From a virus, in the IMG/VR virus record IMGVR_UViG_3300032240_002285, positions 35,746 to 99,745 of that record: a stretch of 64,000 nt of DNA; one strand, 5' to 3'. Positions 28,164-33,185 of the stretch are shown piece by piece. Within the stretch, counting starts at the first letter, position 1. Every line of letters begins with the position of its first letter. The notes beneath the pieces are model-generated. The model did not search any database, had not been told where the DNA came from, and saw only the letters and a list, made by a program, of their open reading frames with translations. Position numbers and translations under genes: made by a program.

Positions 28164-28234
28164 CACTCCCTAAAGGATTCGAACCTCTACAAACGGTTTT
28201 GGAGACCGTTGTGCTACCGTTACACCAAAGAAGT
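28164..28234 (-). tRNA. tRNA-Trp(CCA)
   Basis: ACGGT-CTCCAAA-ACCGT. Confidence 0.9.
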
Positions 28235-28242
28235 GAATAATG

Positions 28243-28313
28243 AGGTCAGAACAGGATTCGAACCTGCGTAGACGGTTTTGCAGACCGCAGCCTAGCCACT
28301 CGGCCACCCGACC
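28243..28313 (-). tRNA. tRNA-Cys(GCA)
   Basis: GCGGT-CTGCAAA-ACCGT, U73. Confidence 0.92.
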
Positions 28314-28319
28314 TTATTG

Positions 28320-28390
28320 TTACCCGAGAAGGATTCGAACCTACCCAAAGCGCACCAAAAACGCTTGTGCTACCGCTACACCATCGAGCA
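28320..28390 (-). tRNA. tRNA-Gln(UUG)
   Basis: AGCGT-TTTTGGT-GCGCT, U1-A72. Confidence 0.9.
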
Positions 28391-28396
28391 ATTTAA

Positions 28397-28473
28397 TGGG
28401 GTGAAAAATGGGGGTCGAACCCATAACCTTCCGAATCACAATCGGACGCTCTGCCTGTTGAGCTATAGACACC
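28397..28473 (-). tRNA. tRNA-His(GUG) with mismatched acceptor stem
   Basis: G-1/C73, TCCGA-TTGTGAT-TCGGA, encoded CCA; acceptor pairs 4-6 mismatched. Confidence 0.8.
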
Positions 28474-28478
28474 ATATG

Positions 28479-28637
28479 CTGTAGTGGAAGGAATCGAACC
28501 TCCAAGGGGTAATTAGGTAAAGGACAATAGTGCTTGCAAGCTGGTGGTCTACCCCGATATCCTTACTTTATTTCATAATCCCCGCCCCCGAGACAGGAGG
28601 GTGCGTCTGCCAAGCGTACGCATTTCGCCACACTACA
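28479..28637 (-). ncRNA. Giant tRNA-like RNA (159 nt; GUC at the anticodon position; ~81 nt variable arm)
   Basis: Acceptor TGTAGTG/CACTACA, T-arm GGAGGTTCGATTCCTTC, Leu-type D-arm with insert. Confidence 0.75.
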
Positions 28638-28732
28638 ATTTTCAAACTAACTCACTGGAAACCTTATAACTTATTTTCAAAGCTTATGGGTTAAGCACTC
28701 CTATTATGTTAGTTTCTCGTGCTCTAAGTGTG

Positions 28733-28817
28733 AGGAGAGTTAGGGATTCGAACCCCAGGTCCTGTTACAGACTTCGGTTTTCAAGACCGACGCAATCGAC
28801 CGCTCTGCCAACTCTCC
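28733..28817 (-). tRNA. tRNA-Ser(UGA)
   Basis: TCGGT-CTTGAAA-ACCGA, long variable arm; discriminator U. Confidence 0.92.
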
Positions 28818-28835
28818 TTATTTGTTTTACTATTG

Positions 28836-28909
28836 TTGGAATAGATGGACTCGAACCATCGACATCTACCGTATCAGGATAGCGCTCTAACCAACTGAGC
28901 TATATTCCA
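28836..28909 (-). tRNA. tRNA-Ile(GAU)
   Basis: CTATC-CTGATAC-GGTAG. Confidence 0.92.
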
Positions 28910-28984
28910 AAGTACCCCACTTCACCAGCTTAACGGACTGGCTGCCATATGGGAGTGGGGGTTTCCTGTTATTTCAGGACTCCG

Positions 28985-29068
28985 TGGTCAGGACAGGATT
29001 CGAACCTGTATGAGTTTCTCACCTCTACCCCTGGACGGGGCTGCGTCTCTCCATTTCGCCACCTGACT
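28985..29068 (-). ncRNA. tRNA-like RNA with non-canonical 5-nt anticodon loop
   Basis: Acceptor AGTCAGG/CCTGACC, T-arm ACAGGTTCGAATCCTGT, arm GCCCC-GTCCA-GGGGT. Confidence 0.7.
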
Positions 29069-29090
29069 ATAAAACAAATATACTACCAAT

Positions 29091-29102
29091 ATTTCAAAGA
29101 AC
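29091..29102 (-). promoter_or_regulatory. boxA-like antitermination element
   Basis: GTTCTTTGAAAT just 5' of tRNA array 1; similar elements at 32941-32950 (-) and 22324-22334 (+). Confidence 0.55.
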
Positions 29103-29135
29103 AAAAAAAAACCTCGGAATTTTGTCCCAAGGTTT
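29103..29135 (-). terminator. Attenuator-type terminator of leader 1
   Basis: AAACCUUGGGA-CAAAA-UUCCGAGG-U9. Confidence 0.8.
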
Positions 29136-29159
29136 CAAATATTTTTAGTTTAAACTTTC

Positions 29160-29264
29160 TTATCCTAAAATGATATCTAACACACGAGACGCGTATGGGC
29201 CATTCCAACAAATTGAATTTGAGGATTGGTTACTAAACGACATAATGTGTTGTGATGTTTTCAT
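29160..29264 (-). CDS. Leader peptide 1 (34 aa) MKTSQHIMSFSNQSSNSICWNGPYASRVLDIILG
   Basis: Open frame ATG 29264 to TAA 29160, followed by terminator and tRNA array 1. Confidence 0.7.
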   Translation of the reverse strand: MKTSQHIMSFSNQSSNSICWNGPYASRVLDIILG

Positions 29265-29313
29265 TATTTTATTATATATACTTCAAATGTAGTAAAAGTT
29301 TACCTAATCTCAA

Positions 29314-31727: not shown

Positions 31728-31787
31728 TTGTGTTGTATTAAGTTTCTGTAAAGGTAATAAAAAAAAATAATGATACAAAATTATTTT

Positions 31788-31864
31788 TGGTGGACCAGCC
31801 TGGGCTCGAACCAGGGACCTACTGATTATGAGTCAGGCGCTCTAACCGACTGAGCTACAAGTCC
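31788..31864 (-). tRNA. tRNA(CAU), probably Ile2 (lysidine, reads AUA); Met not excluded
   Basis: CTCATAA loop; Ile-like body GGACTTG-TAGCTCAGTCGGTTAGAGC; no initiator GGG/CCC stem; CCA encoded. Confidence 0.85.
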
Positions 31865-31875
31865 AAATTTTAATG

Positions 31876-31955
31876 TGGGAGTGGAGGGATTCGAACCCCC
31901 AATGTCGTAGACCACAGATTTACAGTCTGCTAAGCAACCGTTGCTCAACACTCCC
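31876..31955 (-). tRNA. tRNA-Tyr(GUA)
   Basis: GCAGA-CTGTAAA-TCTGT, variable arm. Confidence 0.9.
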
Positions 31956-31967
31956 AATTATTATACG

Positions 31968-32040
31968 TACCCCTGATAGGACTCGAACCTATAAAACCTG
32001 GTGCCTAAAACCAGTGACTTTGCCATTTGTCCACAAGGGC
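31968..32040 (-). tRNA. tRNA-Leu(UAG) with short variable loop
   Basis: CTGGT-TTTAGGC-ACCAG, A73, 73 nt. Confidence 0.8.
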
Positions 32041-32186
32041 GTAAATTTTACAACTTAACAATTTGTTAATAGTATTATATAAAGTTTTATCTTAAATAAT
32101 CTAACAATTCGTTGTATTATTTTTATTTTGTGAAGACTGAATTCTATTTATAATTGATAATAAACTTCAATAAATCATCAAACAAA

Positions 32187-32510
32187 ATGAAAAAAACAAT
32201 CTTCACAATCCTTTTATTAACCGCAACATTATTTGCAGCAAACGCCTCGGATTCAACAAGTATCAAACAAGTTGGTACATTTAAATTTTCTGTATCAAGT
32301 ACAGATAAAAACTTAACAGTTTTAATTTATGACTCAAATAGTGAATTAATTCACCAAGAATATCTAAACTCAAATAAATTATTTAGATTAGATAGTTTAT
32401 CTGATGGTCAATATACTATTAAAGTTTTGGACTTGAAAAAAAACCCTTTAGCAACTAAAACTTTTGAAATTAAAAGTGAAACCAAACGAGAATTAATTGT
32501 TCTTAACTAA
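32187..32510 (+). CDS. Secreted small protein, T9SS-CTD/Ig-like fold, inserted antisense in tRNA array 2
   Basis: Signal peptide MKKTIFTILLLTATLFAANA; V.IYDSN...LDSLSDGQYTIKV. Confidence 0.65.
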   Translation: MKKTIFTILLLTATLFAANASDSTSIKQVGTFKFSVSSTDKNLTVLIYDSNSELIHQEYLNSNKLFRLDSLSDGQYTIKVLDLKKNPLATKTFEIKSETKRELIVLN

Positions 32511-32545
32511 TCTAAAAGGTCCCTTTTTTAAGGGACTTTTTTTTG

Positions 32546-32619
32546 CTCTCTTTCTTGGGCTCGAACCAAGGACCTATTGATTAACAGTCAATTGCTCTAA
32601 CCTACTGAGCTAAAAGAGA
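32546..32619 (-). tRNA. tRNA-Asn(GUU)
   Basis: ATTGA-CTGTTAA-TCAAT, G73. Confidence 0.92.
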
Positions 32620-32624
32620 ATTAA

Positions 32625-32701
32625 TGGTAGGGAATGCCAGATTTGAACTGACGACCTCTTGCTCCCAAAGCAAGCGCGATACCGAGCTACGCTAATTCCC
32701 T
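32625..32701 (-). tRNA. tRNA-Pro(UGG)
   Basis: CTTGC-TTTGGGA-GCAAG, CCA encoded. Confidence 0.9.
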
Positions 32702-32702
32702 A

Positions 32703-32779
32703 TGGTGATTCGGCTTGGATTCGAACCAAGGACCTACTGCTTAGAAGGCAGTTGCTCTATCCAACTGAGCTACCGAACC
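32703..32779 (-). tRNA. tRNA-Arg(UCU)
   Basis: ACTGC-CTTCTAA-GCAGT, CCA encoded. Confidence 0.93.
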
Positions 32780-32789
32780 AAGAAAAATT

Positions 32790-32922
32790 AGGAAAGTAGA
32801 AGATGGTTCAGTGGACATCTACTTTTACGATTGGCATTACTTTGGTGAATACCTCCAAACTCCGATTATGCCAGTCAGTATTCACTCTCGAACTATAGAC
32901 ATAACCATTCCCCAATCAACCT
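32790..32922 (-). ncRNA. Unknown pseudoknotted RNA (~133 nt)
   Basis: Crossing helices GTGAATAC/GTATTCAC and TGGCAT/ATGCCA; hairpin AAAGTAGA/TCTACTTT whose loop AACCAT matches upstream ATGGTT. Confidence 0.55.
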
Positions 32923-33022
32923 GAATGTTAATTCCCACATGTCAAAGAACAATTAGGGTAATTAACATCTCTATGTTTTTCCCCGATTGTTTTACAAATT
33001 TAAGCCAATTATTTTATAAAAC

Positions 33023-33057
33023 AAAAAACCCGAACTAATTTTTATTTTAGTTCGGGT
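33023..33057 (-). terminator. Attenuator-type terminator of leader 2
   Basis: ACCCGAACUAA...UUAGUUCGGG-U6. Confidence 0.85.
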
Positions 33058-33080
33058 CTATATTATTAAGTTAGTTTTTT

Positions 33081-33185
33081 CTATCCAACAATCACATCCG
33101 AACTTTTTATATACGTAAGCGTATAGGCAGTCCCATTATTATAAGGTCTGTCTAATCTCGGCAATATGTTAATAAAGTTCGTCAT
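33081..33185 (-). CDS. Leader peptide 2 (34 aa) MTNFINILPRLDRPYNNGTAYTLTYIKSSDVIVG
   Basis: Open frame ATG 33185 to TAG 33081; contains antiterminator AGUUCGG (33098-33104). Confidence 0.72.
   Translation of the reverse strand: MTNFINILPRLDRPYNNGTAYTLTYIKSSDVIVG

Follow-up and report, generated by a model that had tools for sequence, protein, structure and literature searches.

Codon-matched leader ORFs suggest attenuation control of tRNA arrays in a large phage

Architecture of the two modules and of their relatives

The stretch of DNA analysed here (the window) represents the 3' 64 kb of a 99.7-kb virus contig, IMG/VR record IMGVR_UViG_3300032240_002285. Two tRNA arrays lie on its minus strand, and each is headed by a short open reading frame (ORF) that a sequence-only reading of this DNA had proposed to be the leader of a transcription attenuator. 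CheckV rates the contig as 26% complete, which implies that the window is a fragment of a phage of ~300 kb or larger, and related IMG/VR contigs include sizes of 317-326 kb. The GC content is 32%. The window contains 11 copies of the Bacteroidota sigma-A promoter pattern TTTG-N18-20-TAnnTTTG, compared to 3.0 expected, and none of 100 shuffles reached 11. Since the promoters are of this type, the host is probably a member of the Bacteroidota, an assignment made from promoter type only. In Flavobacterium psychrophilum, the -7 box of the same pattern occupies positions -12 to -5, and leader-peptide attenuation has been inferred for Flavobacterium amino-acid operons (PMC9723704). Together with the promoter type of the window, this makes an attenuator plausible in the host. 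Terminator-like sites number 11 in 8 kb, compared to 4.5 expected.

The features of both modules are listed in Table 1. The two 34-codon ORFs with their DIILG and DVIVG ends were found where the sequence-only reading had placed them, the terminators follow 22-25 nt downstream (about 25 nt had been given), and the codon counts of both leaders as well as the tRNA gene content of the arrays were correctly described. In the following, region 1 denotes a segment at the ORF start, region 2 the candidate antiterminator strand around the ORF 3' end, and rostered codons are leader codons that are read by tRNAs encoded downstream. Leader 1 contains seven Ser codons (six TCN, one AGT), four Ile codons (ATT/ATC), two CAA codons and one codon each for His, Cys and Trp. 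Of its 33 codons, 17 are read by the tRNAs of array 1, compared to 8.0 expected (p 7e-4), and all seven anticodons of array 1 are represented. This roster may be incomplete as counted, because the array also holds two further tRNA-like segments. The first gene (28984-29068, minus strand) encodes an 85-nt tRNA-like RNA with a weak tRNA score of 34 bits, which ARAGORN labels Gly-UCC, and ~160 nt with tRNA-like ends lie between tRNA-Ser and tRNA-His (~28479-28637, minus strand).

Leader 2 contains AGA twice, Pro twice, Asn four times, Tyr three times, ATA twice, CTT once, Thr four times and Gly twice. Their cognate tRNAs are Arg(UCU), Pro and Asn, which immediately follow the leader, as well as the more distant Leu(UAG), Tyr, CAU, Thr and Gly tRNAs. 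A single transcript might stop short of the latter five, as it would have to pass an ORF on the opposite strand (32154-32510) and protein genes; the sequence suggests that array 2b may belong to the unit of leader 2, as it lacks a consensus promoter directly upstream. The closest relative of module 2, locus L110, carries an ORF 91% identical to leader 2, in which 19 of 23 codons upstream of region 2 match downstream tRNAs, compared to 1 of 10 in the tail. L110 has an additional tRNA-Leu(UAA) in ~200 nt that the window lacks just upstream of the conserved ~140-nt stretch, and its leader has TTA where leader 2 of the window has TTT. The same ~200 nt hold a further element of ~110 nt. Within this closest pair, the rostered codons are under evident purifying selection.

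Table 1 Features of the two modules and of the adjoining tRNA genes. Positions are those of the window; promoters, pairing regions and terminators are predictions.
Feature	Position	Strand	Description
P1 promoter of leader 1	29284..29313	-	Bacteroidota-type, TTG-N19-TACATTTG; predicted start ~15 nt before ATG
Leader ORF 1	29160..29264	-	34 codons (MKTSQHIMSFSNQSSNSICWNGPYASRVLDIILG), ends DIILG-stop; divergent member of leader family A
Region 2 of leader 1	29178..29191	-	CGTCTCGTGTGTTA; candidate antiterminator strand, can pair with terminator 5' arm AACCTTGGGAC
Intrinsic terminator 1	29100..29136	-	12-bp stem (29136-29108), 5-nt loop, T9 tract
P2 promoter of array 1	29075..29105	-	TTTG-N19-TATATTTG; -33 element is the end of the terminator 1 T-tract; predicted start ~2 nt before first tRNA-like gene
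boxA-like motif of array 1	29102-29086	-	GTTCTTTGAAATATTGG; within P2 spacer
tRNA array 1	28163..29068	-	odd tRNA-like gene, Ile(GAU), Ser(UGA), tRNA-like insert, His, Gln, Cys, Trp
Candidate -7 box of leader 2	33256..33263	-	TATCTTTG; found by eye, clear -33 element not seen
Leader ORF 2	33081..33185	-	34 codons (MTNFINILPRLDRPYNNGTAYTLTYIKSSDVIVG), ends DVIVG-stop
Region 1 of leader 2	33174..33181	-	CGAACTTT, codons 2-4; pairs with region 2 (AAAGTTCG) in full-length fold; 8 bp, z -2.6
Region 2 of leader 2	33097..33107	-	AAAGTTCGGA, codons 27-30; candidate antiterminator strand, complementary to terminator 5' arm CCCGAAC
Intrinsic terminator 2	33020..33059	-	13-bp stem (33059-33026), T6 tract
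P2' promoter of array 2	32995..33025	-	TTTG-N19-TAAATTTG; directly after terminator 2; -33 TTTG is the end of the T-tract
boxA-like motif of array 2	32934..32950	-	GTTCTTTGACATGTGGG; downstream of P2'
Conserved ~140-nt stretch	32785..32925	-	between boxA-like motif and tRNA-Arg; nearly identical in L110 (~510-650)
tRNA array 2a	32545..32779	-	Arg(UCU), Pro(UGG), Asn(GUU)
tRNA array 2b	31788..32040	-	Leu(UAG), Tyr(GUA), CAU tRNA (Met or Ile2); no consensus promoter directly upstream
tRNA-Thr(UGU) and tRNA-Gly(UCC)	29442..29927	-	own promoter 29927-29898

Relatives were collected through the flanking proteins DUF6915 and DUF5856, which yielded 152 loci out of more than 590 related IMG/VR loci. 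In the position that leader 1 has in the window, these loci show a conserved cassette made up of a promoter, an ORF with ATG start and 26-34 codons (type M-K/N/R-T-T-x-x-H-I-V-F-S-x-Q-Q-E-x-C-W...), a spacer that is likewise conserved, a terminator (CCCCGAAC...GTTCGGGG), a boxA-like GTTCTTTGAAATATTGG with a promoter-like TAnnTTTG, and tRNA genes. The position of P1 upstream of leader 1 is kept in these relatives, and no other part of the region is as well conserved as the P2 segment. A DNA profile of 20 cassettes from relatives (nhmmer) revealed 74 distinct instances in the related IMG/VR loci, often two or three per phage and each upstream of a tRNA array. The profile also matches both window leaders, with E values of 8e-18 for leader 1 and 5e-4 for leader 2, so that their equal length and their D-x-x-x-G ends can be attributed to homology; leader peptides of relatives end in ...SSDVIVG, ...SSDVILG or ...DSDTDVG. 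Judged from these matches, the window leaders are diverged copies of one kind of module, of which several distinct leader families exist. An ATG ORF of 21-40 codons occupies the same place in all families, and the window ORFs have an A at -3. Conservation across homologous arrays, which the sequence-only reading had put forward as a check, was thus observed for the leader ORF, the terminator and the mutually exclusive antiterminator described below.

The family emerged from synteny at the DNA level only. A strict regular expression for the D-x-x-x-G end found four relatives only, and tblastn with the leader peptides found little. Pfam and PHROGs contain no family for the leader peptides, and the leaders are not covered by any Rfam family; the Rfam models for His, Leu, Thr and Trp leaders and the T-box gave no match on the leaders of the window, L101 and L092, even at E up to 1. 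No Rfam match was obtained for the conserved ~140-nt stretch of module 2 either.

Correspondence between leader codons and downstream anticodons

For the comparison of leaders and arrays, every predicted terminator at most 300 nt before a same-strand tRNA gene was considered, and the leader was defined as the longest ATG-initiated ORF of 12-60 codons that ends shortly before the terminator; spurious ORFs were kept. All same-strand tRNAs up to the next predicted terminator formed the downstream set, and codons were assigned by wobble rules. The set was redefined in this way because the unit continues through interspersed protein genes to the next terminator. A definition restricted to tRNAs within 450 nt of each other, with which the family A leaders appeared unenriched (8 of 32 codons compared to 8.4 expected), was dropped.

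Across 29 peptide clusters, 319 of 716 codons are read by the tRNAs downstream of their own leader, compared to 208.5 expected from phage codon usage (z 9.8). Shuffling the tRNA sets among clusters resulted in 200 +/- 19 matches, and none of 20000 shuffles reached 319. The signal recurs across families with unalignable leader peptides and differing terminators. Several leaders may occur in one phage, as in locus L101, where leader A is followed by Glu, Val, Phe, Lys, Cys, Trp, Tyr, Met, Gln, Arg(ACG), His and Ser tRNAs and leader B (MKTMNTNTNLDTPTTPNGDAGT...) by Pro, Asn, Asp, Gly, Thr and Ala tRNAs. Leader C of the same locus (MRTTLLHTLLLDRQGLLRRLMP) has five TTA, three CTN and four AGA codons among 21 and precedes Leu(UAA), Arg(UCU) and Leu(UAG). 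As a control within phages, codons read only by the own set were compared with codons read only by another set: the former are more frequent in 35 of 36 leaders (573 vs 168). In the window, the respective numbers are 15 vs 7 for leader 1 and 16 vs 3 for leader 2. The match that the sequence-only reading had noticed between each leader and its array therefore exceeds chance and favours the own tRNA set.

The correspondence extends to isoacceptors. Leaders with only Arg(UCU) downstream contain 38 AGR and 5 CGN codons, whereas those with only an Arg(ACG)-type tRNA contain 9 AGR and 19 CGN codons (Fisher 1.5e-6); the genomic share of AGR among Arg codons is 0.78. Within family A, CGN codons amount to 1.6 per leader before Arg(ACG) and to 0.38 without it. 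In 30 contrasts within families, the summed cognate excess is 16.1 compared to -0.07 +/- 3.55 in within-cluster shuffles, none of 2000 of which reached the observed value. Covariation of leader codons and array anticodons, likewise suggested earlier as a check, is hence found beyond codon usage and shuffled pairings, and also within families. Coverage is nearly complete: of 182 downstream anticodons, 173 are matched by a cognate codon of the leader that precedes them, compared to 116.7 +/- 5.4 for random leaders.

Position and reading frame were analysed in 20 representative leaders sharing less than 40% identity. Among codons at least 12 nt upstream of region 2, 277 of 390 (71%) match the own tRNAs, compared to 142.6 expected (37%). 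In the ORF tail, 68 of 180 codons (38%) match, compared to 71.8 expected, and the two zones differ with a Fisher p of 8e-14. The match peaks at 80% in codons 18-26 nt upstream of region 2. Reading the same nucleotides in frames +1 and +2 reduces the 71% match to 34% and 26%, respectively, which, like the match in the tail, is at baseline. Direct binding of tRNAs to the leader, as in a T-box, was considered and rejected, as the match is specific to the reading frame.

An alternative explanation takes the small ORFs for small-protein genes in their own right, or the region for a small RNA, each with a promoter and a terminator of its own; the arrays would then form separate units transcribed from P2, and the codon match would be incidental. 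The order of P1, small ORF, terminator, P2 and tRNA genes can indeed be read as two units. However, incidental matching is at odds with a signal that is seen in a single frame, that of the ORF, and in only one of its zones, that represents 95% of the downstream anticodons and in which Arg codons switch with the downstream isoacceptor, and the peptides match no protein family. We regard this explanation as highly improbable, also in light of the conservation pattern of the ORF ends.

Alternative pairings and the proposed attenuation

For each of 64 distinct leaders, we searched for the upstream segment that pairs best with the 5' arm and loop of the terminator. In 63 of them, this best partner is located at the 3' end of the ORF: measured from the last base of the stop codon, its own 3' end falls within a range from 36 nt upstream to 17 nt downstream, with a median of 10 nt upstream. 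Modules with the terminator CCCCGAAC/GTTCGGGG have GTTCGG or GTTCAG at the ORF end, and modules with the unrelated terminator CCCATCTC/GAGATGGG (L092, L095 and L109) have GGAGATGGGA at this place. In the family A alignment of 25 sequences, the antiterminator is 82.7% paired, compared to 27-44% with the partner slid along the sequence; 7 of its 11 pairs change on both sides, and none of 500 shuffles reached its covariation score. The pairing of region 1 with region 2 (codons 2-5 with the antiterminator strand) is 78.6% paired in family A compared to 22-47% when slid, and the terminator is 99% paired in the alignment.

In the window, leader 2 shows all three pairings, 1:2, 2:3 and 3:4 (the terminator). 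Its antiterminator, GTTCGGA with CCCGAAC, has a duplex energy of -11.2 kcal/mol (z -2.5) and forms when the 3' arm of the terminator is omitted; for the homologous pairing in family A, covariation provides support. Terminator 1 has a different sequence, and the candidate strand of leader 1 occupies, by codon count from a conserved TGG, the place that corresponds to region 2 of family A. An antiterminator also forms in leader 1 when the fold is truncated before the 3' arm of the terminator.

Depending on the subfamily, the strand at the ORF end encodes Cys-Ser-Ser or Val-Val-Arg/Ser. Because it is read in different frames, region 2 is conserved as RNA and not as peptide, and the ORF merely stays open across it. 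This speaks against the explanation by independent genes introduced above, and the small-protein version of it is rejected on these grounds; the covariation of the antiterminator and the relatives that leave no room for a promoter after the terminator argue in the same direction. Sequence and comparison thus document the ORFs, the terminators, their alternative pairings and a codon/anticodon match that is specific in frame and position.

Taken together, we consider it likely that the modules are ribosome-mediated transcription attenuators of the trp/his/ilv type placed before phage tRNA arrays. According to this model, P1 as a host-type promoter would start a short mRNA with a leader ORF of 22-40 codons, and most codons in the first two-thirds of this ORF would be read by tRNAs encoded downstream. 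The last codons, or the bases right after the stop codon, would constitute region 2 with its complementarity to the 5' arm of the terminator. A ribosome completing the ORF would cover region 2, so that the terminator forms and transcription stops. A ribosome stalled at any rostered codon, because the charged tRNA is scarce, would leave region 2 free to pair with the terminator arm, and RNA polymerase would then pass the boxA-like element into the tRNA genes. If the leader remains untranslated, region 1 could sequester region 2. The outcome would be a negative feedback in which slow decoding of given codons raises transcription of the tRNAs. Translation of the leader, read-through upon stalling and the sign of the response are the parts of this model that we infer.

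As regards the sign, efficient translation of the leader might instead promote read-through, for example if a close ribosome suppresses pausing or hairpin formation, in which case tRNA synthesis would follow translational capacity and not shortage. The sign is more than sequence alone can establish, and boxA and P2 show that there are further layers of control. The geometry argues against this version: 22-38 nt separate the stop codon from the terminator stem, which is beyond the reach of a terminating ribosome, whereas region 2, given the median position of its 3' end, would lie under a ribosome that finishes the ORF. In addition, the rostered codons end ~12 nt before region 2, as would be required for a ribosome stalled on them to keep clear of the strand. 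This position of the rostered codons is the strongest argument for the sign proposed here, and we see very little chance that the response is reversed.

Several observations weigh against attenuation as the control of these arrays. Between terminator and first tRNA, both window modules and ~85% of the relatives have a -7 box that equals or approaches the consensus TAnnTTTG, and owing to this promoter the arrays can be transcribed without read-through. The counterpart of P2' in L110 has a -7 box that reads TAAATTTA. The sequence-only reading had recognised the box of array 2 at 32995-33002, which is real, and had overlooked that array 1 has such a promoter as well; its suggestion that the window arrays depend on read-through is not supported, since each has its own promoter after the terminator. 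The boxA-like elements are both present as it had placed them, the one of array 1 lying inside the promoter spacer; this motif would therefore be absent from the P2 transcript and carried by P1 transcripts only. The antiterminator of leader 1 is weak, with a best duplex of -8.7 kcal/mol and a z of -0.4 that is not significant alone, and the pairing of regions 1 and 2 is individually non-significant in most families outside A. The downstream tRNA sets depend on predicted terminators, and the match statistics are incompletely corrected for shared ancestry. Leader-region DNA had no match in the phage collection, and a cultured relative was not found. Finally, some relatives keep the same arrays without a leader, having a gene terminator and P2 only: L023 (~9100-9180) and L027 (~5030-5113) before Leu-Arg-Leu, and L110 (5700-5860) before array 1. 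The leader module is thus dispensable and is gained and lost.

A promoter after the terminator is lacking in L101, L017, L034, L092, L095 and L075 only. In the first three of these, tRNA-Pro begins ~5 nt after the T-tract, and in the other three only a boxA-like motif lies between terminator and tRNA. Since the room or the motif for a promoter is absent, read-through is the only evident route into these six arrays. The attenuator still seems to matter, because leaders are evidently constrained, some relatives lack the second promoter and attenuated operons of enterobacteria also contain internal promoters. From the arrangement of the elements, we read the design as a basal flux from P2 with a demand-dependent flux from P1, so that in the window the attenuator would add to expression and not solely gate it.

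It could also be that the attenuator is real in this lineage and minor in the window, with the P2 promoters as the main driver and leader 1 as a decaying copy. P2 perfectly matches TTTG-N19-TAnnTTTG in both modules, 2-10 nt before the first gene, and the weak antiterminator of leader 1, the -33 element of P1 not seen for leader 2 and the leaderless array 1 of the close relative L110 would fit this reading. On the other hand, leader 1 still matches its array in codons and in all seven anticodons and keeps a consensus P1, leader 2 keeps its three clear pairings, and the rostered codons shared with L110 are under purifying selection. We therefore regard a minor role in the window as unlikely, though less so than the alternatives discussed above.

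Relation to known systems and neighbouring elements

Leader peptides that sense more than one amino acid are known from enterobacteria, namely those of thr (Thr, Ile) and ilvGMEDA (Ile, Leu, Val), besides trpL, hisL, leuL and pheL. The phage modules resemble these systems in their short leader ORF enriched in regulatory codons, the intrinsic terminator, the sensing of several amino acids per leader, the mutually exclusive antiterminator that would be masked by a ribosome finishing the ORF and, in family A and window leader 2, an upstream segment that could sequester the antiterminator strand. They differ in that they would regulate tRNA genes and not biosynthetic enzymes, and in that a leader lists up to 13-17 anticodons, mostly with single or few codons and not with runs. 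Furthermore, they are phage elements with Bacteroidota-type promoters and usually have a second promoter and a boxA-like motif after the terminator. The pheM leader, which attenuates pheST, and the T-box riboswitches, which control aminoacyl-tRNA synthetase genes, are similar in that they act by transcription attenuation, report on the state of a pool of tRNA or amino acid and govern a gene whose product serves translation. Their targets are synthetases, whereas the phage modules would target tRNAs, and the T-box binds uncharged tRNA through one specifier codon without translation, in contrast to the frame-specific signal over many codons seen here. To our knowledge, leader-peptide attenuation is textbook matter for genes of amino-acid synthesis or tRNA charging, not for tRNA genes, and full-text literature searches found no published account of the attenuation of tRNA genes.

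The boxA-like motif occurs between the terminator and the first tRNA in 24 of the 64 distinct elements (strict pattern) and in both window modules. It may be akin to the boxA of ribosomal RNA (rrn) operons, which this GTTCTTTGA(A/C)AT-type motif between terminator and untranslated tRNA genes resembles in sequence. Unlike rrn boxA, the motif of family A and of window array 1 lies inside the P2 spacer, so that P1 transcripts only would contain it.

The nearest published case comes from Anabaena sp. PCC 7120, where translational stress induces the trn array via promoter direct repeats bound by the repressor TrcR (PMC8421152, PMC10272220). It is likewise a supernumerary tRNA array, and its expression rises when translation is impaired. 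The Anabaena array differs in being bacterial and controlled at the promoter, and neither PMC8421152 nor PMC10272220 mentions a leader peptide or attenuation.

If the model is correct, the sensed quantity (the speed of codon decoding) and the product (the decoding tRNAs) form a direct loop, with up to 17 anticodons per leader. Giant phages would then regulate their imported translation capacity by demand and not constitutively, and the leaders would provide a sequence-level prediction of the co-transcribed tRNAs as well as a natural sensor of stalling at many codons, which might be adapted to report how available tRNAs are. This bears on the question of why phages carry tRNAs, as the leaders would name the shortages that the phage expects, and the gain and loss of leaders among relatives offers natural comparisons. 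Generality of the mechanism among tRNA-rich phages is not claimed.

Phage tRNAs have been described to counter host defences that target tRNAs (PMC10264068, PMC11555353, PMC11464382), which suggests a possible selective reason for replacing particular tRNAs on demand. The titles and abstracts of these reports describe the tRNAs and no sensing or regulatory element before the arrays. We tentatively raise the possibility, which we hold to be rather doubtful, that the leaders are a multiplexed detector of attacks on the tRNA pool, be it by an anticodon nuclease or through phage-induced host shut-off. Removal of tRNAs would cause stalls on the respective leader codons and thereby transcription of the array with the replacements, resulting in an inducible counter-defence that acts via translation. 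A link of the leaders to anticodon nucleases is speculation.

Some neighbouring elements deserve mention. A DUF6915 protein is encoded among the tRNA genes of the window (30631-30978, minus strand); besides the related loci, this neighbour yielded only distant matches in Bacillus, Streptomyces and Gordonia phages. In the Streptomyces phage Jay2Jay (L155 8983-9366), a DUF6915 protein also lies in a tRNA region, beside a Ro-like RNA-binding protein. As the family sits in the tRNA regions of both phages, its location suggests a role related to tRNA or RNA. The small ORFs between the tRNA genes of Jay2Jay were considered as leaders and rejected; they look like ordinary small proteins and have no leader-like content. 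Inside a leader-controlled tRNA array of locus L092 (12950-13012), Rfam detects a freshwater-1 RNA (RF02979) with 73.8 bits, which is above the gathering threshold. A fused layout of terminator and promoter also occurs in the window at 33400-33457 (plus strand), before an HNH endonuclease gene, where the final TTTG of a terminator T-tract doubles as the -33 element of the promoter that follows; there is no upstream plus-strand gene for this terminator hairpin to act on. Lastly, the window phage encodes a transfer-messenger RNA (22338-22746, plus strand) with the tag peptide GNTFAKLAALGLTKEAGVTVA and its own consensus promoter (22283-22314), as a second element dealing with stalled ribosomes.

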